NCBI GenBank assembly: GCA_038212275.1
Contig: JBBQUR010000002.1
Span: 222,823-286,822 of the forward strand
Length of the DNA: 64,000 bases
From: Planctomycetota bacterium
GTDB lineage: Bacteria > Planctomycetota > B15-G4
Direction of reading: 5' to 3'
Shown: positions 1 through 10,018 of the stretch, piece after piece
Layout: each line of letters opens with the position of its first letter
Position numbering within the stretch: the first letter of the stretch is position 1
Translations under genes and position numbers: made by a program
Notes under the pieces: generated by a model
What the model saw: the letters and a program-made list of their open reading frames with translations, nothing else
Told to the model about the DNA's origin: nothing
Databases searched by the model: none

Positions 1-303
1 GTCTTCGATGCCGAGCTTGCTGGCGGCTTCCTTTGCCTCGGGCGACGCGAGGCGCGCGAAGGCCTTGCTGTGATCCGTGCCTTCCCACTGGGCGAACTGG
101 TCGCCGCCCGCCTCGGACTTGTGGCAGTTCTTGCACTTGGCGGCGCCGATGTACTTGTTGGCACCCGCCGCGCTGGCGCCAGGAACGGCCGCGCGCACCG
201 GCACGGGATCCAGGGATCCGGCAGCAACGAGACCGAGGGCACACGCGGCGACGACGAGTCCGCTCCAGAGGCTTGAAGACAAACCGAGGCACTTCACGCG
301 CAT
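1..303 (-). CDS. Cytochrome c554-family multiheme cytochrome c, N-terminal part (runs off the window edge)
   Basis: Manual translation from ATG 303 (AGGAGG RBS): MRVKCLGL...signal peptide...NKYIGAAKCKNCHKSEAGGDQFAQW...HSKAF. YIGAxxCxxCH..QxxxW..H is typical of c554-type N-termini. The frame is open to base 1. Confidence 0.8.
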   Translation of the reverse strand, partial: MRVKCLGLSSSLWSGLVVAACALGLVAAGSLDPVPVRAAVPGASAAGANKYIGAAKCKNCHKSEAGGDQFAQWEGTDHSKAFARLASPEAKEAASKLGIED

Positions 304-382
304 CTCCTCCTGAACAGGGCCATTCGATTCCCGGCGCAGTCTGTCCCGAAGGTGGGCGCAGCCGCGCAGGGAGAAATATTCC

Positions 383-398
383 GCAACCCTCGTGCCAA
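383..398 (-). promoter_or_regulatory. sigma54 (RpoN) -24/-12 promoter for the c554-like gene
   Basis: Minus strand TTGGCACGAGGGTTGC, a near-perfect TGGCAC-N5-TTGC with GG-N10-GC spacing, about 80 bp upstream of ATG 303. Confidence 0.8.
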
Positions 399-416
399 CT
401 GCGGAGACCGCGAGCT

Positions 417-1325
417 TCAGTCCGGCGGAAGCGATTCGCCAGCCGACGCGACGCCTGTGTCGGGCCACGCCGGGAAATATCCCGCGGCTGCCGCTGCATT
501 CTCATTGCCGCGGAGCGCCGCGCGGACGGCGGCCGCCCAATCGTCGTCCGCTTCGGCGGCCAGATCGGCGCCAAGCCGCCGGAGCTGCGGGGGCGTGCCG
601 AACTGCGCGACCGTTGCCGCGGCCCGGCGCCGCAGGTCGGGCGGGATCTCGCGAGCGCTCACGCACTCCGCAAGCAGCGCCACGGCGGCCGGCTCCCGTG
701 CGCCACGTGTCGCGAGGTCACTCAGCGCAAACTCGGGCAGCGACGCGTGTCCGGTGACGCGCGCATCCGGATCCGGCGGCAGGCGCAAGGCATGTGCAAA
801 CCAGGTCCCCGCCTCGGGCGAGCCGGTGTCCCGGAGCGCACGCAGCAACGCGACGCGCTCGGCGTCGGCATGACCGGGTGCGAAGACCGACGGAGCCAGC
901 TCGGCAAGTCCGCCCCCAGGCTGTCCGGCGATGACGACGAAGTGCTGATAGAGCGCGCGCTCGCTCCCCGGCCGGGGCTGCCTCGGGAACTCGGCCTGAT
1001 CGGAATCCGCAGGCCCGCTCGCCGCCGCGGGCCACGGCGCCTCGGCGTTCGGCTCGAGCGCAACGGCCTGCAGCGCCTCCGCGGCGACGGAGCCTGCACG
1101 GCGGTTCGCCATCGACGCCGCATCCGGCACATCCGGCACATCTGATGAAGGCATCGCGGCGCTCGAGACCGCCTGGCCCGACGCCTCCACTGCGGCCGGC
1201 GGACGCTGCGGTCCGGCGTCCGCCATCACCAGCGCGATGACCGCGGCGACCGTCGCCAGCACGGCAACGGTCGCTGCAAGCATCGCTCCCCGCGTGCCGG
1301 GTGCCCTGTGGGATGCCGTGTTCAC
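417..1325 (-). CDS. Hypothetical membrane-anchored, helical (HEAT-like) protein co-transcribed with the MtrC-like cytochrome
   Basis: GTG start with GGAGG RBS 10 bp after the decaheme stop; N-terminal hydrophobic segment; Ala/Leu-rich helical body; no CxxCH. Confidence 0.6.
   Translation of the reverse strand: MNTASHRAPGTRGAMLAATVAVLATVAAVIALVMADAGPQRPPAAVEASGQAVSSAAMPSSDVPDVPDAASMANRRAGSVAAEALQAVALEPNAEAPWPAAASGPADSDQAEFPRQPRPGSERALYQHFVVIAGQPGGGLAELAPSVFAPGHADAERVALLRALRDTGSPEAGTWFAHALRLPPDPDARVTGHASLPEFALSDLATRGAREPAAVALLAECVSAREIPPDLRRRAAATVAQFGTPPQLRRLGADLAAEADDDWAAAVRAALRGNENAAAAAGYFPAWPDTGVASAGESLPPD
471..504. promoter_or_regulatory. Conserved 34-bp upstream element, copy 1 (candidate enhancer/UAS)
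   Basis: CGGGAAATATCCCGCGGCTGCCGCTGCATTCTCA matches 5166-5199 at 27/34 positions without gaps; about 75 bp upstream of the sigma54 motif at 383-398. Confidence 0.55.
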
Positions 1326-1335
1326 GCACCTCCCG

Positions 1336-4300
1336 TCAACGCGGCTTGTGGACCAGCTCCACGGCGACTTCCTTGCCCTCGCCGTGGCAAAGGGCGCACG
1401 CCTCGGCGCCCGACAACGTCGTCTGCGTCTCGATATGCACCGTGGTCAGGTCGTCGTCGTGGCACGCACTGCAGACCGAGGCCCATTCATGCACTTCCGG
1501 CGTCTGGCCGCCGACGCCGGGGTAGTCGCGATCCGCGGGGCCCTGCCACAGCGTGTTCTCGGTGCCGTGGCACTTGGTGCAGTTCATCGTGCCGCCGGGG
1601 AAGGCCGGGAACTCGACCTCGTCGTACATCGAGGCGGCGCCGCCGAATCCGATCACCTGGTAGGTGCTGGCATTGGCCAGCTCCGCGCCTCGGTGAATCT
1701 TGTGAAGCATCGTGCGGAAATCGATGGTCACGCCGGTCGACGGAGGCGCCGACGTGGTGTCGTACTGCGCCTTGTCCTCGCCGCCCGAGACGCTGTGGCA
1801 GAGCAGGCAGGACTCCACGCCGCGCCGGCCGCCGCCGTGGAACTGCGTGTCGTTGTGGCACGCGTTGCAGTTGGCGGTGGACGAGATGATCTCGTGCGGC
1901 ATCACCTCCGTGGCCGTGGCGCCGTACAGGAAGTTGAAGTCGACCGCGTTCGAGGTGCTCCGGTAGGTCTGCACCTCGCCCTGCAGGGCGACCTGCAGAT
2001 TCTGCGAGAACCACAGCGAGACGACGCAGGTGCCGTCCACGTAGGGCCTGCCGACCCATTCGCCCCACTCCGGACCCAGCGTGTCGGAGTCATTGGGCGG
2101 CGGCTGGTAGAGAGTCTGCAGCGTGTCGCCCGCGTGCCTGCGGTAGCCGAAGACGCCGTCGGTGCGGTAGGTCAGCACGACGCCGTTGCTGTTGGCGGCG
2201 AAGGGCACGACCGACGTGATCGTGCCGTTGGCGGCGTTCAGCGTGTACTGATTGCCGGCGCCCTCCTGCCGGAAGGTCAGCGTGGCCTTGCCCACCGCCG
2301 CGCCGCTGGCGTGTGCGTAACGCACCGGCGACTTGAACCACATGCGCGTCGCGCTCTCGACCCATCCCAGCTGCAGATACTCGCGGGTGCCCAGACCTGC
2401 TGCGCTGTCGAGCACGACGTAGGTCGTCGAGGCGGTCGTGTAGCCAGCCGTGGACGCGACGTCCACGTAGCGCGCGAACGGCGCGACATCGGCACTGAGC
2501 GTCGTCGGGTTGGCCACGGCCGTCACTTCGGAGAGCGCCTGCCGCCCGAAGTAGACGGGCAGGTTGCCCGCCGTGAAAGTCTGCCCGACCATGCCGTTGC
2601 CATCGCCGAGGTACTCGGTCGTGAACTCCATCGGGAACGCGATCGTGTAGCTGGACGCGTCCGGCACGAACTCGTAGTAGATGCGGTCGGGCGTCGGGAG
2701 CGTGCCCGTGAAGGCCGTACGCCCCGCGATGATCCCGAAGAGCACCTGGCTCGCCGGGCCACCGAGGAGCCCCGACACGCCCGTCTCGAAGACCGTCACG
2801 TAGATGGTGTTGCCCGCGGCGAAGGCCGTGCTGCCCGCCGCGACGAGGAACGCGACGGTGCCGTCATCGGAGGTGAAGGCGTTGCTGCCGCTCACCGTGC
2901 TGGGAAGCGTGCCGGAGCCCATGGCCCCGGTCACGGAGCCCGTGACCGTGAAGGCCTGGGGTCCGGAGAAGGTCACGGCGAGGTTCTGAGTCACGGCGTC
3001 GCTGCGGAGAATGAGCGCGGAGAGCGACGAACCGTTCGGGTTTGTGCTCTTGCCGTCCACCGGCTGCAGCGCGCCGCTGCCGAGGCTGCCGCTCACCGTG
3101 CCCGTGACGGTGAACGCCGTGGCCGAGCTGAACTCCACCGTCAGCGTCTCGGCCACCGCAGGGCCGGACGCGACGACCTTGCTCATCGCGCCCTTGCCCG
3201 ACGCGCTCGCGGCCTGCAGGCGGCCCGCGAAGTCGTACGGGCTGAGGCTGACGTTGCTCGTCCCGGTGTACGGCATCATGACCTGCTGGTTGTTCGTCGG
3301 GCCGAGGAGCAACGACACCGAGGCGTCCATCGCGGTCAGGCCGACGGGGTCGCCCTGCTCGGTGCCGAGGCTGAAGACGAGACGGGGCGTGTCGCCCGCC
3401 TGAAACCTGCCGCCGGCTCCGGTGCCACCCACGACGTCCGTGATGTCCACGTCGATGCCCGCACTGATTGCCGGATCTTCGAGCGGATGGGCGTGACCGT
3501 CCACGACGGCAAGCGAGTCGCCCTCCGTGGCGTGGCACACGTTGCAGGAGCTGCTCGGATTGGCCGGCATGATGTCCTGATTGGCTGCATAGGGCCGGTT
3601 CCAGTCGATGTCGTCGTGGCAACTTCCGCACGAGGCGCGGCCCGGCTGCGACTTGTAGAGATCGCCCTGAGCGGGGGCCTGCAGTTCGCCGCTCCCATCC
3701 GGATCGCCGTGGCACTTCAGGCACGTGGTGGCGCCGGCGCGGATCGCGTCCTCCTGGGCCTTCTGGCCCGAGGTCAGCGCCGAGTAGCCGTAGTCCTTCG
3801 GGACATTCGACGTGAGGTTCGGCCAGACCGGGAAGCGGACGAACGAGAAGTCGTTCACGCTGTTCATGAAGCCGACCACCTCATAGGGCGCCGGAGTCGC
3901 GTCATAGTTGCGCGTCCCGTCTTCGTTCGTCGCCACGCCGTTCACCGACGGCAGGTGGTTGGCGTTGTGCAGCTTGTGGATCATCACCCTGAAGTCGATC
4001 GACACTCCGGGCGTGCCGTCCGCCGCCGTCGCCACGTTCTTGTCCTCGGCGCCGGCCGTGTGACACAGGAGGCAGAGCTTCGCCTCGCGGCGCAGGCCGC
4101 CGTGCGCCTGCAGCGACACGTGGCACTGGTTGCAGTTCTCGGTGCTCACGACGTCGCGCGAGGCGATCGCCGGTGTCGTGCCGAGCAGGAAGTCCTTCGT
4201 GGCGTTGCCGACATCGCGGTAGATGGCGCCATCGACGGTGTAGGTCCAGGCCGTGTACATGCCGACGGTGTAGGTGCCACCCAGCAGCGACTCGCCGGCC

Positions 4301-4857
4301 AGCTCGCCGTCCGCGGCCCCGAAGGACGCGCTGTCATTGAGCGGCGGCAGGTAAGCCTCCGGGATCGGCGTCGCGAAGGTGTACTTGTAGGTGGCCACCC
4401 CCACTTTCACCGAGGCTGTCGCCAGGTCGGACTTCTCCGCGAGCACCCGCTGATAGTTGAAGGAAGGGCCCGACATCATGATGCGCGCGGTGCCCATCTC
4501 GGCCAGGCCCCACGAGGAGCCATCGTTCTTCTTGAGCGTGAAGGTGACCGACAGCTTGTCGCCCGGAGCGAAGTGATCGGAGTTCGGCTTGGCCGCCGAC
4601 GCGCTCGGCGCCGCGGCGGACGGCAGTGAACCGCCGGACAGCTCGATGATCTGCAGTTGCACGCCCGGCGCGTCTTCTGCCGGCAGCAGCTGGGTGTCCT
4701 CCGGCGTCGGCTCGGCCGAACTGCCGCCCGATCCGCCGCCGCCGCCGCCGCTGCCGCCACCGCAACCGGCGAGCAGCCCCGCCGTGCAGAACACCACGGC
4801 CATGAACTGCGCGGGGACCGAGATTCGGAAGAAGGAGGGCAAGGCGCTGAACTTCAT
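1336..4857 (-). CDS. MtrC/OmcA-like decaheme c-type cytochrome lipoprotein, 1173 aa
   Basis: Likely start ATG 4857 (AGAGGA RBS); lipobox LLAGC; 10 CxxCH in two blocks of five (CNQCH, CLLCH, CLKCH, CGSCH, CNVCH / CNACH, CLLCH, CTKCH, CSACH, CALCH); IDFRxMxHKxH motifs after hemes 2 and 7, as in the OmcA/MtrC family. Confidence 0.85.
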   Translation of the reverse strand: MKFSALPSFFRISVPAQFMAVVFCTAGLLAGCGGGSGGGGGGSGGSSAEPTPEDTQLLPAEDAPGVQLQIIELSGGSLPSAAAPSASAAKPNSDHFAPGDKLSVTFTLKKNDGSSWGLAEMGTARIMMSGPSFNYQRVLAEKSDLATASVKVGVATYKYTFATPIPEAYLPPLNDSASFGAADGELAGESLLGGTYTVGMYTAWTYTVDGAIYRDVGNATKDFLLGTTPAIASRDVVSTENCNQCHVSLQAHGGLRREAKLCLLCHTAGAEDKNVATAADGTPGVSIDFRVMIHKLHNANHLPSVNGVATNEDGTRNYDATPAPYEVVGFMNSVNDFSFVRFPVWPNLTSNVPKDYGYSALTSGQKAQEDAIRAGATTCLKCHGDPDGSGELQAPAQGDLYKSQPGRASCGSCHDDIDWNRPYAANQDIMPANPSSSCNVCHATEGDSLAVVDGHAHPLEDPAISAGIDVDITDVVGGTGAGGRFQAGDTPRLVFSLGTEQGDPVGLTAMDASVSLLLGPTNNQQVMMPYTGTSNVSLSPYDFAGRLQAASASGKGAMSKVVASGPAVAETLTVEFSSATAFTVTGTVSGSLGSGALQPVDGKSTNPNGSSLSALILRSDAVTQNLAVTFSGPQAFTVTGSVTGAMGSGTLPSTVSGSNAFTSDDGTVAFLVAAGSTAFAAGNTIYVTVFETGVSGLLGGPASQVLFGIIAGRTAFTGTLPTPDRIYYEFVPDASSYTIAFPMEFTTEYLGDGNGMVGQTFTAGNLPVYFGRQALSEVTAVANPTTLSADVAPFARYVDVASTAGYTTASTTYVVLDSAAGLGTREYLQLGWVESATRMWFKSPVRYAHASGAAVGKATLTFRQEGAGNQYTLNAANGTITSVVPFAANSNGVVLTYRTDGVFGYRRHAGDTLQTLYQPPPNDSDTLGPEWGEWVGRPYVDGTCVVSLWFSQNLQVALQGEVQTYRSTSNAVDFNFLYGATATEVMPHEIISSTANCNACHNDTQFHGGGRRGVESCLLCHSVSGGEDKAQYDTTSAPPSTGVTIDFRTMLHKIHRGAELANASTYQVIGFGGAASMYDEVEFPAFPGGTMNCTKCHGTENTLWQGPADRDYPGVGGQTPEVHEWASVCSACHDDDLTTVHIETQTTLSGAEACALCHGEGKEVAVELVHKPR

Positions 4858-4944
4858 GATCCGAGATCCTCTTGTCCTGAAACCGGGTTGAAGGCGGAGT
4901 GCTCTCACAGGAAGCCGAAGGCACGCCCCTCGCGGACTGCTTGA

Positions 4945-4960
4945 GCAATTGGCGTGCCGT
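4945..4960 (-). promoter_or_regulatory. sigma54 -24/-12 promoter for the MtrC-like gene
   Basis: Minus strand ACGGCACGCCAATTGC (GG-N10-GC, GGCAC..TTGC), about 90 bp upstream of ATG 4857. Confidence 0.75.
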
Positions 4961-5165
4961 TCGCTCAATGGAAATGAGCCTTGAATCGCCGGGGCGCACG
5001 CGTTCGGGAGCCTACTCGACATGTCGCGGCCAAACTTTTCCCACTCGCGGCAGCCTCGTCGCCTCGGAACGGAAGCGTGCGCATGCGACTCACGGCAGAG
5101 GCCTGCCTGCCCCCTGCCGACGCGTGCAGCAGCAACTCGGTCATGTCGCCGGCGCTGAGGCGTCC

Positions 5166-5199
5166 CGGGGAAAATCCCGCTGTCGTCACTGCATTCTCA
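5166..5199. promoter_or_regulatory. Conserved 34-bp upstream element, copy 2
   Basis: CGGGGAAAATCCCGCTGTCGTCACTGCATTCTCA; intergenic; 27/34 identical to 471-504. Confidence 0.55.
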
Positions 5200-5230
5200 G
5201 CTGCGGCTTCACTCGGCGCGGCCGCCTCGC

Positions 5231-5303
5231 TGGTGGCATGCCTCACTGGTGGCATGCCTCACTTGTGGCAGCCCTCACTTGTGGCAGCCCTCACTTGTGG
5301 CAG
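5231..5303. repeat. 16-bp tandem repeat, about 4.5 copies, derived from the 3' end of the 13-heme gene
   Basis: TGGTGGCATGCCTCAC x2, TTGTGGCAGCCCTCAC x2, then TTGTGGCAG. On the minus strand each unit contains TGC CAC (A/C)AG TGA (C-H-K/Q-stop). Confidence 0.9.
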
Positions 5304-6331
5304 AAGGTGCAGTCGTCGCCGTTGTCCACGTGCGGCAACGGAGCGGAGATGCCGTGACAGGCCCGGCAATCCATGCCCGGGAAGTGGTTGGGCGGCTGGT
5401 CGGTGGCATCCAGGTGACTGGGCGTGCTCTTGTGGCACACCGAGCAGCTCTCGCTTTGCAGCGGGTAGTGACATGCCATGCAGTGCGTGTCCTGAGGAGC
5501 GCCCCACGCGCCGCTGTTGTGACTCAGCGGCGGAGTGTCGTTGTGGCAACGCACGCAGGAGGACGGTTCGTGGCAGGTCCTGCACGAGTCGCGATCCATG
5601 TCGGCGACGACGCCGTGGCCGCGCAGTCTCCAGAAGTTGTTGTGACTGGCCGGCGGCTGGTCCTGGTGGCACTTGATGCAGGTCTGGTCCGTGTGGCAGA
5701 GGGTGCAGTCGTTCGCGGGCCCCTCGAAATCGCCGCGCACCGCAACGCCGTGTGTCGTCATCCACTGCTGACTGTGATTCGGGGGCATCGTGTCCGTGTT
5801 GATCAGGCTGTGGCAGACCGTGCACGAGGTGTCCTGGCCGACGCTCTGATGGCAGCGGATGCAGTCGTCCATGCGCGGCGACACGGAGGGATCCACGAAG
5901 TCGTTGGTGAGGATCGGCTCGTGGCACGCTTCGCAGGAGGCGCCCGCGCCGACGTGCGTCGCGTGCGAGAACTTCACCTCGTCCGCCAGCGCCGAGGCGC
6001 GGGTCGCGCGGTAGGCATCGCCGTCGAAGAGCGAGGCCACCTGCCGGTCCGGCTCCTTCCCGGCATCCAGCTCCTCGTGGCACAGCGCGCACTGGGCCGG
6101 CTTCACGTCCTGGACGACGTCGCCGTCCTCGTACGCGGAGTGGCAGTCGCTGCAGCTCAGGCCTTCCTCGAGGTGCCGTTCGTGGCTGAAGGCAAGCGGC
6201 TTGTCGCTCAGGCCCAGATACTGCAGCACCGCGCAGCCGGTGATCGCGAGCACGGCCAGGGAGAGAAGCCTGGCCAACCTGCCGCGCGAACCCGGTCGAC
6301 GCCCATCCGTGAGTCTGTCTAGAAGCGCCAT
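5291..6331 (-). CDS. 13-heme c-type cytochrome lipoprotein (c3/c7-like N-terminus), 346 aa
   Basis: Start ATG 6331 overlaps the porin stop; lipobox AITGC; 13 CxxCH counted; two FSH..H..CxxCH class III motifs followed by repeated PPxH..W...H..CxxCH..CxxCH modules. Confidence 0.9.
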   Translation of the reverse strand: MALLDRLTDGRRPGSRGRLARLLSLAVLAITGCAVLQYLGLSDKPLAFSHERHLEEGLSCSDCHSAYEDGDVVQDVKPAQCALCHEELDAGKEPDRQVASLFDGDAYRATRASALADEVKFSHATHVGAGASCEACHEPILTNDFVDPSVSPRMDDCIRCHQSVGQDTSCTVCHSLINTDTMPPNHSQQWMTTHGVAVRGDFEGPANDCTLCHTDQTCIKCHQDQPPASHNNFWRLRGHGVVADMDRDSCRTCHEPSSCVRCHNDTPPLSHNSGAWGAPQDTHCMACHYPLQSESCSVCHKSTPSHLDATDQPPNHFPGMDCRACHGISAPLPHVDNGDDCTFCHK

Positions 6332-7860
6332 GTTGCCTTCGCCGTGAGGGTGTCGAAGTTGTCCACGTCGCTCACTTCGTGATCGATGCCGAGCGACCAC
6401 GTGAGCGTCTTGTCCACGAGATACCGCATCGTCAGGTAGTAGTCGCGCACGTCCTGGCGATCCTCGTTGAGCAGGAAGTCGTTCTTGTACAGCGCGTAGA
6501 ACGAACCGAGCGACATCCGGACGGCCTTGGTCCACTTCCGCGTGAGGTCGACGCCCCACGTCGCGTATTCGGTGTTGTCGTTGCCGTCCCAGAGCTCGCC
6601 GGTCACCGAGAAGTCCAGGTCTTTCGTGACGAAGTCGTGCGTCGTCTCCGTGAGGAAGTAGCGCGTGAACTCGTGGTTGAAGTCGCCCTCGTCGTCGCTG
6701 TTCTTCAGCTTCCGGCCGTCCAGTCCGGCGGTCACGTCGTAGCCGGCTTCGAAGGATTTGCTGGCCAGCACGCGCGCCTGACGGAAGGGTTCGTACTGCG
6801 TCAGCGTGGCGTAGTAAGGATCGAATTCCTCGACCAGGAACTCCTGCGTGCGAAGCAGCTCGTGATACCAGAAGTTCACCAGCCAGCCGGACTCGGGGCG
6901 CACCCACGTCGCGCGCAGATCGAGATCGCGCGGCTTCTCCTCGAGCACGGAGTAGGCGCCTTCCACGTGCACCTCCTTGCCGAACTGCTGGCCGAGTCGC
7001 GCGGCGTAAAGGTCGTTGTTCTCCGAACCCAGCTGCGACTCGCCCTGCTGCACGCCGTTCTCGATGTGCAGCGCGTCGAGGCGCAGCTTGCCGCCCTCCC
7101 ACGGCCGCACCTTGAAGTAACCGCCGACCACCTTGTTGCCCGACGACGACGACTCGTACTCGTAGTCGGACTGACCGAGGTAGGCGCCGTATTGCTGCCG
7201 CGCCGAGCCATCCGGCGCGGTCTCGATGGCCACGCCGTCGAAGCGCACGTACTCGGGCGTGTCGTCGAGCTGCTGGCGGCCGATGCGCAACAGGCTGAAG
7301 CCGTTCTCGTGGAAGTCCGCGTACGCCTCGTACAGGTTGGAGTGCACGGAGTTGGAGTAGGTGTCCTCCAGACCGCCGTACAGGTCCTGGTTGCTGTTCT
7401 TGTCGAGGTCCCACGCGGCCCGGGCCAGCACGTAGCCGGTCACCTCATCCTTGGCCGCGTCACCGATGCTCGTCTCGAGCAGACCGTAGATGTCCGTGTC
7501 GTGCGTGCCGCCCGTGGTCCTTTCCACGAAGCGCAGCCCGAACGATCCGTGCACCACGCCGCTCTCATCGATCTCGCCTTCCTTGCCATCGTCCGTGGTC
7601 GCGCCCGCGGCGGCAGATCCGTACGGCGAGGCAGCGCCGGCAGGAGTTGTTCCCGGCGCGCCCTCGTCCACGGAGACCACGGCACCTTCGCTCCATGCTG
7701 CGGTGTCGCCCGTCTCGCCGGCGCCCGCTGCGCCTTGAGCAGGACTGCCGCCGGCCGGGCCGGCACAACCCGCCATCAGCGAGGCGGACGCCACGCCGGC
7801 AGCCAGTGCAAGGAGGAGGCCGTAGCCCCTGGGTGCCGATGATTCGCCGTGTCTGTCCAC
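6319..7860 (-). CDS. Outer-membrane beta-barrel (porin of a porin-cytochrome complex)
   Basis: Lipobox LMAGC, low-complexity linker, then alternating amphipathic strands rich in Y/F/W/D; C-terminal KATWRF (BamA-type terminal Phe); directly upstream of and overlapping the multiheme gene. Confidence 0.8.
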   Translation of the reverse strand: MDRHGESSAPRGYGLLLALAAGVASASLMAGCAGPAGGSPAQGAAGAGETGDTAAWSEGAVVSVDEGAPGTTPAGAASPYGSAAAGATTDDGKEGEIDESGVVHGSFGLRFVERTTGGTHDTDIYGLLETSIGDAAKDEVTGYVLARAAWDLDKNSNQDLYGGLEDTYSNSVHSNLYEAYADFHENGFSLLRIGRQQLDDTPEYVRFDGVAIETAPDGSARQQYGAYLGQSDYEYESSSSGNKVVGGYFKVRPWEGGKLRLDALHIENGVQQGESQLGSENNDLYAARLGQQFGKEVHVEGAYSVLEEKPRDLDLRATWVRPESGWLVNFWYHELLRTQEFLVEEFDPYYATLTQYEPFRQARVLASKSFEAGYDVTAGLDGRKLKNSDDEGDFNHEFTRYFLTETTHDFVTKDLDFSVTGELWDGNDNTEYATWGVDLTRKWTKAVRMSLGSFYALYKNDFLLNEDRQDVRDYYLTMRYLVDKTLTWSLGIDHEVSDVDNFDTLTAKATWRF

Positions 7861-7911
7861 TGTATTGCCCTGTGTCCCAGACTTCGGGAAGCGTGTCCGG
7901 GCGCCTCTGTC

Positions 7912-7927
7912 GCAACTGTCATGCCGG
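7912..7927 (-). promoter_or_regulatory. sigma54 -24/-12 promoter for the porin/13-heme operon
   Basis: Minus strand CCGGCATGACAGTTGC (GG-N10-GC), about 50 bp upstream of GTG 7860. Confidence 0.7.
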
Positions 7928-8038
7928 TGTCACGCGCGCGAAGGACCTGCGCTTCCGGTGCACTTGCGGGGCCCCCGAAGCGGCACCTGGTCCCGCGAAT
8001 GCGCCCTCCGGCCGCTGCTCCACCGCTCGGATCGCGAA

Positions 8039-8521
8039 CTATTCCGCATCTCCTCTGGTGAACTCCACGCCGCGAGGCGGCGTCTCCGCGTGTCGAGTGA
8101 ATCGGGAGTGATCTGCTCCTGACTCCCGAACCGCGGAGCCCGCACGCACCACCTTCACCTGCTGGCCGCAGAGCTCGTCCATGAGGCGCTCGAGCGCCGC
8201 GTCCTCGAACTCGTCCCAGCCCTTGCAGAGGTCGCGCTCGAGCAGCTGCGTGTCGCAACACAGCTCGGCCCCGAAGCGCCGCTTCCGCTCGACCAGCCAG
8301 GCGTTGGCGAGCGCCTCGAATTCCGCACGCGGGAGCTCGGGATGCCTCAGCGACAACCACCAGAAGCGCCGCTTGAGATCGGCGTAGCTCCACCGGGCAA
8401 AGCCGTGGCAGAGCGTGCCGGTGCGTGCGGCAACCTCGCAGAGGCAGTGCTTGTCATCCACCTGTTCCGCGAGACGCGGGCGCAGAAGGTCGATGGCTTG
8501 CTCACGCGTGATGGTCTTCAT
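8039..8521 (-). CDS. Cys-rich hypothetical protein, 160 aa
   Basis: ATG 8521 with GAGG RBS: MKTITREQAIDLL...CLCEVAAR..LCHGF...CCDTQ..LCKGWDEF. 7 Cys, no signal peptide. Confidence 0.7.
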   Translation of the reverse strand: MKTITREQAIDLLRPRLAEQVDDKHCLCEVAARTGTLCHGFARWSYADLKRRFWWLSLRHPELPRAEFEALANAWLVERKRRFGAELCCDTQLLERDLCKGWDEFEDAALERLMDELCGQQVKVVRAGSAVRESGADHSRFTRHAETPPRGVEFTRGDAE

Positions 8522-8600
8522 GGCGCTACCTCGGGCGATCGAGGGGAGTGAGGGTGATCGGATGCCACGGCAGCAGCCGATGCCAGCTGTCCCGAAGCAA

Positions 8601-8616
8601 GCAACTATCCATCCAG
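8601..8616 (-). promoter_or_regulatory. Weaker sigma54-like promoter for the Cys-rich gene
   Basis: Minus strand CTGGATGGATAGTTGC: TGG-N10-GC with TTGC, but the CAC after GG is not conserved; 80 bp upstream of ATG 8521. Confidence 0.4.
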
Positions 8617-8779
8617 CGACTTCGCTTCGCTGCGCTCCCGCCCGGGCACGCGTCGAGCCGGCCGTCAGCGATCGCGATCGGGTGCGCGACCTGCCCGTTC
8701 CAGTCGCTAGAATCCGCGCCTCGTTCGGCGGCGCGCTTCCCTGACGGAGCGCTCGGCGCGCGCTCACTCGGGAGACGAC

Positions 8780-10018
8780 ATGGCCAGCAAGCCGCGCAAG
8801 GGGCGCACCGCCGCCAAGAAGAAGAGCTCCTCCGCGCCACGCCGCAGCGCCGCGGGCAGTCGTCCGGGGACCAGCACCAGGTCGGCCGAAGCCGCCGCCA
8901 TCAAGTCCCACGAGCACTGGCGCGAGCACATGGGCACGGGGCACAGCGACGGCCTCGTGCCGGTGCGCTCGCTGGACCTCTCGACCGTCTCCTCCGTGAA
9001 TGACCTCGTCCGCGGCATGTCGGCCACGAGCTTCGGCGGGCGATCGCTGGGCGAGGCGGCCGACATCCTGGAAGTCATGGTGCGCGACCCGGGCTGCAAG
9101 GTCGTGCTCACGCTCTCGGGCGCGATGACCATCGCGAAGCAGGGCCTCATCATCGCGGACATGATCGAGCGCGGCTGGGTGCATGCCGTCGTCTCCACCG
9201 GCGCGCTCATGTGCCACGGCATGGTCGAGACCGCCGGCATGCTGCACTTCAAGCACGACCCGACCATGGGCGACGAGAAGCTCTTCGCCAAGGGCTACAA
9301 CCGCGTCTACGACACGATCGAGCTGGAGCAGAACCTCGACGACACCGAGAAAATCATGGCGAAGATCCTCGGCAGCGTGCCGGAGAACGAGCACGGCCTC
9401 CCCGAGACGCTCTGCAGCCACAAGCTGAACCGCCGTATCGGCGAGTACCTCGCGCGGCACACGAAGGGCCGCGGTCCGCTGCGCTCGGCCTTCGAGCACG
9501 ACGTGCCCATTTATGTCCCGGCGTTCACCGACAGCGAACTCGGCCTGGACTACGGCACCAACAATCATCGCCGCCGCCTCGCCGGCAAGGGCCCGATCCC
9601 CTACGACCCCTTCCTCGACCTCGAGGACTTCCGCACGCGCATCGACAGCCACGAGACCTGGGGCATCTTCACCATCGGCGGCGGCGTGCCGCGCAACTGG
9701 GCCCAGCAGGTCGCGCCCTACATCGACATCCTCGGCAAGCGCCTGCCGGAGATGCGCCGGCCGCTGCGCCGCTACAGATACGCGGTGCGCATCTGCCCGG
9801 AGCCCGTGCACTGGGGCGGCCTCTCCGGCTGCGACTACAGCGAATCCGTGAGCTGGGGCAAGATCGTGCCGCGCAGCGAAGGCGGCCGCTGGGCCGAGGT
9901 CAAGGACGACGCGACCATCGCCTGGCCGCTCATCGTGAAGGCCGTCATGGAGCGCGTGGATGGCGCGGGCGGCAGGCGCAAGCGCGCGGCATCCCCTCGT
10001 GCGGCGCCCGGGCGCTGA
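8780..10018 (+). CDS. Deoxyhypusine synthase-family protein (probable homospermidine synthase)
   Basis: SFGGRSLGEA, LSGAM, VVSTGA, YVPAFTDSELG, IGGGVPRNW, GGLSGC..SESVSWGKI (catalytic Lys position), DATIAWPL. Confidence 0.9.
   Translation: MASKPRKGRTAAKKKSSSAPRRSAAGSRPGTSTRSAEAAAIKSHEHWREHMGTGHSDGLVPVRSLDLSTVSSVNDLVRGMSATSFGGRSLGEAADILEVMVRDPGCKVVLTLSGAMTIAKQGLIIADMIERGWVHAVVSTGALMCHGMVETAGMLHFKHDPTMGDEKLFAKGYNRVYDTIELEQNLDDTEKIMAKILGSVPENEHGLPETLCSHKLNRRIGEYLARHTKGRGPLRSAFEHDVPIYVPAFTDSELGLDYGTNNHRRRLAGKGPIPYDPFLDLEDFRTRIDSHETWGIFTIGGGVPRNWAQQVAPYIDILGKRLPEMRRPLRRYRYAVRICPEPVHWGGLSGCDYSESVSWGKIVPRSEGGRWAEVKDDATIAWPLIVKAVMERVDGAGGRRKRAASPRAAPGR

Follow-up and report, generated by a model that had tools for sequence, protein, structure and literature searches.

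A recurring, conserved sequence element at the sigma54 promoters of a planctomycete porin-cytochrome gene cluster: a candidate enhancer

The left 8.6 kb of a 64,000-nucleotide stretch of DNA from an uncultured member of the Planctomycetota (assembly GCA_038212275.1, contig JBBQUR010000002.1, positions 222,823 to 286,822; hereafter the window) form a single gene cluster in which every gene lies on the minus strand. The cluster encodes a porin-like protein, an MtrA-like multihaem cytochrome, an OmcA/MtrC-family outer cytochrome (OMC), a cytochrome c554 and two further proteins of 160 and 302 aa (Table 1). A Logan contig identical to the window, L014, adds 7 kb beyond its left end; with this extension the full cytochrome c554 was found to have 239 aa. 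The next gene, coding for an 869-aa multihaem/cytochrome b fusion, is the last of the cluster. Distributed among the sigma54 promoters of this cluster is a short recurring element that is very probably the binding site of a regulator. We describe here its copies, their conservation and their position relative to the promoters.

The core of the element occurs at 371-384 (GAGAAATATTCCGC), 472-485 (GGGAAATATCCCGC), 5167-5180 (GGGGAAAATCCCGC) and 8034-8047 (GCGAACTATTCCGC), in all cases on the gene (minus) strand. Segments 471-504 and 5166-5199 match at 27 of 34 positions (28 of 35 when 470-504 and 5165-5199 are compared) and share an exact 11-mer arm, CTGCATTCTCA (TGAGAATGCAG on the gene strand), found within the 64 kb just at 494-504 and 5189-5199. 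The four cores, the 27/34 pair and its perfect shared end had been pointed out in the original prediction and were all recovered, as were the location of copy 472 in the 3' end of a coding sequence, the overlap of the 371 copy with the -12 box of the minus-strand c554 promoter and the placing of the 8034 copy about 110 bp upstream of the porin promoter, a distance that we measured as 108 bp. Two types of copy could be distinguished. Type A is a composite that reads on the gene strand as the arm, 8 nt and GCGGG(A)T(A/T)TT(T/C)CCC, and carries a second invariant block, GAGAATGCAG, upstream of the core, whereas type B consists of a core without arm. The core is a 14-bp imperfect palindrome, GCGG(G/A)(A/T)TATTTC(C/T/G)C, with an AT-rich centre and G/C-rich ends; its halves match at 6 of 7 positions in CGGGATA/TTTCCCG and at 5 of 7 in GCGGAAT/AGTTCGC, and the arm contains no palindrome.

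Considered alone, the window gives these repeats only modest significance. Allowing up to three mismatches, the 14-mer has six matches against 2.5 expected, a number reached by 7 of 100 shuffles, and a raw 27/34 match was obtained in 2 of 30 Markov shuffles of 9 kb, two other 27/34 pairs being present in coding DNA. When weighted for the rare A/T letters, the pair was the best in 9 kb, with 52.9 bits, and exceeded all 60 shuffles (maximum 50.2). An unweighted enumeration of 12-mer seeds over eight upstream regions ranked arm and core highest, on a par with GC-rich low-complexity words, and adds little. The element is thus taken as real because, beyond these modest statistics, it is conserved in L007, a locus from a JGI metagenome whose coding DNA is 79-85% identical to that of the window and which constitutes the one close, informative orthologous locus available.

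L007 displays the same gene order as the window, the same three sigma54 promoters (those of c554, OMC and porin) and all four copies of the element at matching places. Intergenic DNA is otherwise too diverged to be aligned between the two loci. In the spacer between the MtrA-like and OMC genes (434/540 bp), only two significant local matches were detected, one corresponding to the element (window 5198-5160 against L007 5099-5137, 39 nt, 82%, E 4e-5) and the other to the sigma54 promoter with its 5' untranslated region (UTR). At the 371 copy, the block GTTGGCACGAGGGTTGCGGAATATTTCT is identical in the two loci. A matrix trained on L007 and applied to the window (128,000 positions) ranked sites 371, 472 and 8034 first to third, with 23.2, 21.9 and 17.4 bits, the top scores of shuffles being mostly 12-15 bits and 17.3 at most; site 5167, which depends on its arm, came sixth with 12.2 bits. 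Conversely, a window-trained matrix ranked the four sites of L007 first to fourth. The 34-mer at 471-504 is also free of differences in an approximately 95%-identical strain from activated sludge, the flanking differences being at 468 and 511, although with about one difference expected over this length the identity is weak evidence. In orthologues at 40-45% protein identity (L008/L009/L012 and L010/L011) the element was not found, and these loci also lack the long MtrA-OMC spacer and its internal promoter. The conservation in orthologous loci called for by the original prediction therefore holds for all four copies in L007 and for none at this greater distance, which makes the motif specific to the window/L007 lineage.

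The element is also restricted to the cluster. No further site of at least 14 bits was present in the 64-kb window or in L007, and the best additional match in L014 scored 13.7 bits; the scanned part of this genome amounts to 71 kb, about 24% of the 297-kb contig. As far as these data reach, neither the remainder of the window and of L007 nor the 7-kb L014 extension contains another copy, so that the element does not behave as a dispersed repeat of the repetitive extragenic palindromic (REP) or miniature inverted-repeat transposable element (MITE) kind; a dispersed repeat is what the original prediction had named as fatal to it. An exact-pattern scan of metagenome contigs gave 0 matches in a collection that also lacks L007, and a scan of the same contigs with the alignment of the 302-aa family returned nothing. 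Literature searches with the motif strings yielded unrelated primers only.

Four promoters can be considered in the cluster, and those of c554, OMC and porin fit the sigma54 consensus well. The porin promoter, as CGGCATGACACTTGC, is retained even in the distant orthologues L008, L009 and L012, and is the only one of these promoters that L008 and L012 have kept. A fourth sigma54-like promoter lies upstream of the 160-aa gene and was overlooked by a consensus search allowing two mismatches because it differs from the 15-mer consensus at three positions; aligned with its counterparts in L007 (1483-1497, TGGAGGGATAGTTGC) and L013 (TGGCGGGGGACTTGC), it shows GG and TTGC at the right spacing in 3 of 3 sequences. 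Upstream of it, GCGGA.T at 8706-8717 is kept in the window, L007 and L013 with a matrix score below 12 bits, and may be a degenerate fifth copy of the core, weak and unproven. Downstream of the OMC promoter, the 5' UTR is conserved together with the promoter itself (4962-4883, 72.5% over 80 nt against L007, including GCGTGC..GGCT.CCT.TG.GAGCAC), and this block at 4883-4962 may form a structured RNA leader or bind a further protein.

Table 1. Positions of the element copies, sigma54 promoters and genes of the cluster in the window, with the corresponding element copies of L007 (L007 coordinates).
Feature	Position	Strand	Sequence or remark
Type A composite	471-504	-	arm TGAGAATGCAG (504 to 494), 8-nt spacer, core GCGGGATATTTCCC (485 to 472); upstream of the c554 promoter
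Type A composite	5166-5199	-	arm TGAGAATGCAG (5199 to 5189), core GCGGGATTTTCCCC (5180 to 5167); non-coding MtrA-OMC spacer
Type B core, no arm	371-384	-	GCGGAATATTTCTC; over the -12 GC of the c554 sigma54 promoter, to about +1
Type B core, no arm	8034-8047	-	GCGGAATAGTTCGC; upstream of the porin promoter, over the stop codon of the 160-aa gene
Possible degenerate fifth copy	8706-8717	-	GCGGATTCTAGC; precedes the -12 of the fourth promoter by about 110 bp
L007 copy of 471-504	9850-9882		TGAGAATGCAG-N8-GCGGGTTATTTCCC
L007 copy of 5166-5199	5098-5130		CGAGAATGCAG-N8-GCGGGTTATTTCCC
L007 copy of 371 core	9970-9983		GCGGAATATTTCTT
L007 copy of 8034 core	2194-2207		GTGGAATATTTCGC; intergenic there
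sigma54 promoter, c554 and probably the following 869-aa gene	383-397	-	TGGCACGAGGGTTGC, 0 mismatches; identical in L007 9957-9971
sigma54 promoter, 1173-aa OMC gene	4945-4959	-	CGGCACGCCAATTGC; L007 5379-5393 is CGGCACGCCGATTGC
sigma54 promoter, porin and MtrA-like genes	7912-7926	-	CGGCATGACAGTTGC; identical in L007 2327-2341
Fourth sigma54-like promoter, upstream of the 160-aa gene	8601-8615	-	TGGATGGATAGTTGC; absent from the list of the original prediction
160-aa Cys-rich protein	8039-8521	-	first in transcription order
Porin-like protein, 513 aa	6319-7860	-	no Pfam or NCBIfam match
MtrA-like multihaem cytochrome, 346 aa	5291-6331	-	
OmcA/MtrC-family outer cytochrome (OMC), 1173 aa	1336-4857	-	TIGR03507 2e-75, PF22113 3.6e-43
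Ala-rich protein, 302 aa	417-1325	-	
Cytochrome c554	1-303	-	cut by the window end

Positions of the copies are given as the number of base pairs that separate the centre of a core from the C of the -12 GC. The distal c554 core lies 95.5 bp upstream in both loci. The porin core lies 128.5 bp upstream in the window and 140.5 bp in L007, a difference of 12 bp or 1.1 helical turns, and the OMC core 228.5 and 269.5 bp upstream, a difference of 41 bp or 3.9 turns. Since these insertions or deletions are close to whole turns, helical phase would be roughly kept, an argument that, drawn from two genomes, is only suggestive. Overall, the element occupies about -100 to -290 relative to the promoters. 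Within type A composites the centres of arm and core are 20.5 bp apart (about 21.5 bp from the centre of the type A palindrome, counted by hand), or roughly two turns, and the proximal and distal c554 cores are separated by 101 bp in both loci. Enhancers of sigma54 promoters typically lie 100-300 bp upstream, vary by insertions or deletions of near-whole turns and pair their sites on one face of the helix. A copy at -80 to -300 from a promoter with correctly spaced -24 GG and -12 GC, the position expected of such an enhancer, was found at three promoters.

Copy 472 deserves separate consideration since it is embedded in the open reading frame (ORF) of the 302-aa protein, where it encodes NENAAAAAGYFP near the C-terminus. 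This peptide is identical in L007 and partly retained in P0003, so selection on the protein contributes to the conservation of this copy. Codons ending in A or T nevertheless account for 6 of 12 in the window and 8 of 12 in L007, whereas elsewhere in the gene their share is 15-18% (P ~0.013 for the window). The three synonymous differences between the window and L007 are confined to places where the motif varies, namely the spacer, the W position of the core and the sequence directly following the core. Taken with the conserved non-coding copy, this codon bias and the placement of the synonymous differences point to a constraint on the DNA of copy 472 itself, beyond its peptide.

The sigma54 holoenzyme opens DNA only with an ATP-driven activator. 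Every sigma54 promoter of the cluster thus needs an activator site, for which the motif, as the sole conserved upstream sequence found, is the best candidate. From the sequences of the copies, their conservation, their restriction to the cluster and their geometry, we infer protein binding, the identity of the protein as a sigma54 activator and the sign of its effect at each site. We propose that one sequence-specific DNA-binding protein would bind the repeats and co-ordinate three or four sigma54 promoters of a porin-cytochrome cluster of the extracellular electron transfer type. At type A composites two protein units would be placed on one face of the helix. A bacterial enhancer-binding protein occupying these sites would oligomerise and loop to the sigma54 holoenzyme at -24/-12, and its ATP hydrolysis would drive the formation of the open complex. 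The 371 copy would act as an occluding site: lying over -13 to +1, it would compete with the holoenzyme and damp the c554 promoter, a repressive role suggested by its position alone. The element set is most likely the enhancer, or upstream activating sequence (UAS), set of a sigma54 regulon; that it serves specifically an activator encoded elsewhere in the genome is a proposal that we hold with evenly divided confidence.

Several observations weigh against this proposal. Six-frame translations of the window, L007, L008 and L010 contain no GAFTGA-type activator signature, and no sigma54-activator gene was found among the genes called in the extra 7 kb of L014. The lack of a nearby activator gene lowers the enhancer claim, although a distant gene is common. 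The activator binding site of the original prediction therefore stands as a conserved, cluster-specific cis-element at enhancer-like distances from conserved sigma54 promoters, and falls short where the activator itself is concerned. The symmetry expected of a dimer site is also incomplete, the core palindrome being imperfect and the arm having none, and type A in L007, GGGTTATTTCCC, loses the GGGA/TCCC symmetry. As the symmetry centres of types A and B differ by 1 bp, the two types may be bound by different proteins. Activators do not normally bind at -13 to +1, where one copy lies, copy 5167 without its arm is at noise level (12.2 bits), and L008 and L012 retain the porin sigma54 promoter without the motif. 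The conservation is that of two genomes and one near-identical strain. Finally, a regulator other than an activator would leave the same footprint.

The most serious alternative, which we nevertheless regard as unlikely, is accordingly that the sites are operators for such a regulator, either a redox- or metal-responsive repressor or co-regulator, or the LysR-type regulator whose gene adjoins the cluster in relatives, possibly with looping between the distal and the promoter-overlapping c554 sites. A site at -13 to +1 is where a repressor would classically bind, both loci have the same 101-bp spacing between this copy and the distal core, and short imperfect palindromes fit many helix-turn-helix dimers; moreover, in L007, L008/L009 and L012 the cluster is directly preceded by a LysR-family gene. 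However, the window has a deoxyhypusine synthase homologue instead of a LysR gene at this place, L008 and L012 possess the LysR gene without the motif, and 101 bp correspond to 9.6 turns, which is out of phase for a simple loop. Nor does the motif resemble a Fur site beyond a half-site matching at 6 of 7 positions (TGAGAAT against TGATAAT); the Fur-type resemblance noted in the original prediction does not extend to a second half. A complete Fur box, whether as a 19-bp 7-1-7 inverted repeat (TGATAATnATTATCA) or as at least three NATWAT hexamers, was not found, as TGAGAAT stands by itself and the adjacent GCAGCGGC provides no second half. We know of no likeness to other operator consensus sequences, which is to be taken as a lead. 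The LysR-family genes are located at 456-1409 in L007, 1408-2376 in L008 and 688-1656 in L012, with AhpC/redoxin genes alongside in L008 and L012. The flank of the cluster has been rearranged, since the window carries the deoxyhypusine synthase homologue (8780-10018, plus strand) where its relatives have LysR.

More doubtful is a scheme in which one regulator would be put to opposite uses. Its distal sites would activate the porin, OMC and c554 promoters and the -13 to +1 site would block c554, thereby setting the ratio of the components of the conduit, while the enhancer copy in coding sequence would fix the C-terminal peptide NENAAAAAGYFP. Alternatively, type A would be the promoter of an undescribed alternative sigma factor.

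It is improbable that type A represents a promoter of the sigma70 family or of an extracytoplasmic function (ECF) sigma factor, placed in tandem before the sigma54 promoters, with ATGAGA or GAGAAT as -35-like and GATATT as -10-like hexamers at an 18-nt spacing. Arm and AT-rich core are indeed 17-19 nt apart in the same orientation at both loci, and ECF sigma genes lie near the homologous cluster in L008 or beside homologues of the 160-aa gene. Yet a sigma70 scan of positions 1-9000 returned zero promoter-like sites, a sigma70-type promoter having TTGACA- and TATAAT-like hexamers at a 16-18-nt spacing with A at -11 and T at -7. Furthermore, the best-conserved letters (GCAG, GCGGG and CCC) fall outside the would-be hexamers, the L007 copies read GTTATT and thus lack the key A at -11, and the type B cores have no arm. 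We also rejected a reading of type A as a decayed sigma54 promoter (TGCAGC-N7-GC against TGGCAC-N7-GC): outside the shared core, on its upstream side, a hand count gives only 6 matches over 20 positions, the level of chance, and the essential GG is missing.

Slightly less probable still is the absence of any regulatory role, the similarity being what is left of a small duplication, with copy 472 preserved through selection on NENAAAAAGYFP, together with chance matches of AT-rich words. The raw counts of the 27/34 match and of the 14-mer family are just marginally above chance in the window, and copy 472 is coding, its peptide being shared with L007 and in part with P0003. Against this, the non-coding copy at 5166-5199 forms a conserved island in an otherwise unalignable spacer, the 371 and 8034 copies and their L007 counterparts are conserved although they are non-coding or overlap a non-conserved tail only, and matrices trained on either locus recover the sites of the other as top matches. 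An element acting in RNA, as a structured motif, processing site or terminator, is very improbable: all copies are on the transcribed strand and a terminator-like hairpin (405 to 380; TCCGCAGTT...GGTTGCGGA) followed by ATATTTCT is present at the 371 copy, over the c554 promoter, but no Rfam match was obtained (E<=1), and the four type A copies, folded to a consensus, give two hairpins of 3-4 bp with a covariation term of zero. As for the 405-380 hairpin, L007 does not preserve its left arm, so that it is probably fortuitous and was rejected as a terminator.

The window, whose DNA has 70% G+C, was found in a sediment metagenome. Runs X3, X4 and X5 were compared with its positions 1-9000: strains about 95% identical to it (about 93-97%) occur in activated-sludge metagenomes, and contigs from a compost metatranscriptome (X5) carry fragments of the OMC, MtrA-like and porin genes, with the promoter regions outside their coverage. 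These fragments point to expression of the cluster in nature, DNA carry-over into the compost run being possible. The lineage is rare. Among 5.8 billion proteins, 3-5 homologues besides the window copy were obtained for each of the 302-aa, porin and 160-aa proteins, five in the case of the last, and a search of genome contigs with the MtrA-like protein gave no close orthologue, only distant relatives at 39% identity or less. Ten further ORFs at 10.2-24 kb contain no regulator according to Pfam and encode Mla transport proteins, an FG-GAP protein, a sulfotransferase, a pyridoxal phosphate (PLP) enzyme and a citrate transporter.

The 160-aa protein is 80% identical to its L007 copy, exceeding the conservation of its neighbours. 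It contains invariant residues H25, C28, C38, C89, C99 and C118 together with a GWDEF motif, and in other contigs its homologues adjoin an ECF sigma gene or an AhpC/redoxin gene. No match was obtained in Pfam, NCBIfam or PDB, the PDB sequence search giving noise, and its AlphaFold model is poor (pLDDT, the predicted local distance difference test, 58.8). This protein may be a metal- or redox-binding accessory or sensor protein.

Other repeated or structured sequences were also observed in the cluster. At 5224-5303, a 16-nt tandem repeat in 5 copies (93% match) extends the final codons and stop of the MtrA-like gene, TGCCACAAGTGA (C H K stop), as duplicates into the spacer. The array has no counterpart in L007, and a 2-base insertion at 5243/5244 in run X2 indicates that it varies between strains. 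A CCG trinucleotide run of 10 copies at 4733-4763 codes for a Gly-rich linker right after the signal/lipobox region of the 1173-aa cytochrome, and numerous short contigs of run X2 accumulate or break off there (depth 77). In the 143-bp spacer between the c554 and 869-aa genes, L014 positions 5280-5302 form a perfect 9-bp stem (GCCTGCCGC TTCGT GCGGCAGGC) with no T-run after it, which could be an RNA stabiliser or processing hairpin.

Outside Shewanella and Geobacter, little is known about how porin-cytochrome conduits for extracellular electron transfer are regulated. Here, such a cluster, from an uncultured lineage that occurs in sediment, activated sludge and compost, is served by sigma54 promoters with a conserved motif in common, and the matrix and the 34-nt probe provide a handle for finding the sensor-regulator and the remaining regulon in full genomes. 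As sigma54 promoters are expected to have upstream activator sites, the general picture is unchanged. What is slightly unusual is the presence of three or four sigma54 promoters in one porin-cytochrome cluster, with one copy of the motif in a reading frame and another on a promoter.

Activators of the NtrC family bind upstream activating sequences, or enhancers, of sigma54 promoters, as NtrC does at glnAp2 and DctD, at tandem sites, does at dctA. The element described here resembles such sequences in consisting of short, partly symmetrical sites about 100-300 bp upstream of a -24 GG / -12 GC promoter, in part probably paired on one helix face, apparently tolerant of whole-turn insertions or deletions and common to several promoters of one putative regulon. 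Unlike these enhancers, the motif matches no activator site known to us or found in the literature search, has no adjacent activator gene, and has one copy over a promoter and one in coding sequence. Control of respiratory cytochromes by sigma54 and an activator is already known from the BccR/cbcBA system of Geobacter sulfurreducens (bioRxiv 10.1101/2021.04.15.440034). Both systems concern multihaem cytochromes for metal or electrode respiration, transcribed from a sigma54 promoter with a dedicated activator, which in our case is a predicted one. In Geobacter the activator gene is divergently adjacent and there is one promoter per operon, whereas the present cluster has three or four promoters and no activator gene nearby, and we claim no sequence relationship between the two. 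With the Mtr, Pio and Mto clusters it shares the order of genes for a porin-like protein, a periplasmic MtrA-like cytochrome and an OmcA/MtrC-family outer cytochrome, but its porin has no family match and its outer cytochrome reaches 1173 aa. Compared with the Shewanella mtr operon, the cluster possesses in addition the 160-aa, 302-aa, c554 and 869-aa fusion genes as well as sigma54 control, which to our knowledge is not among the features of that operon.

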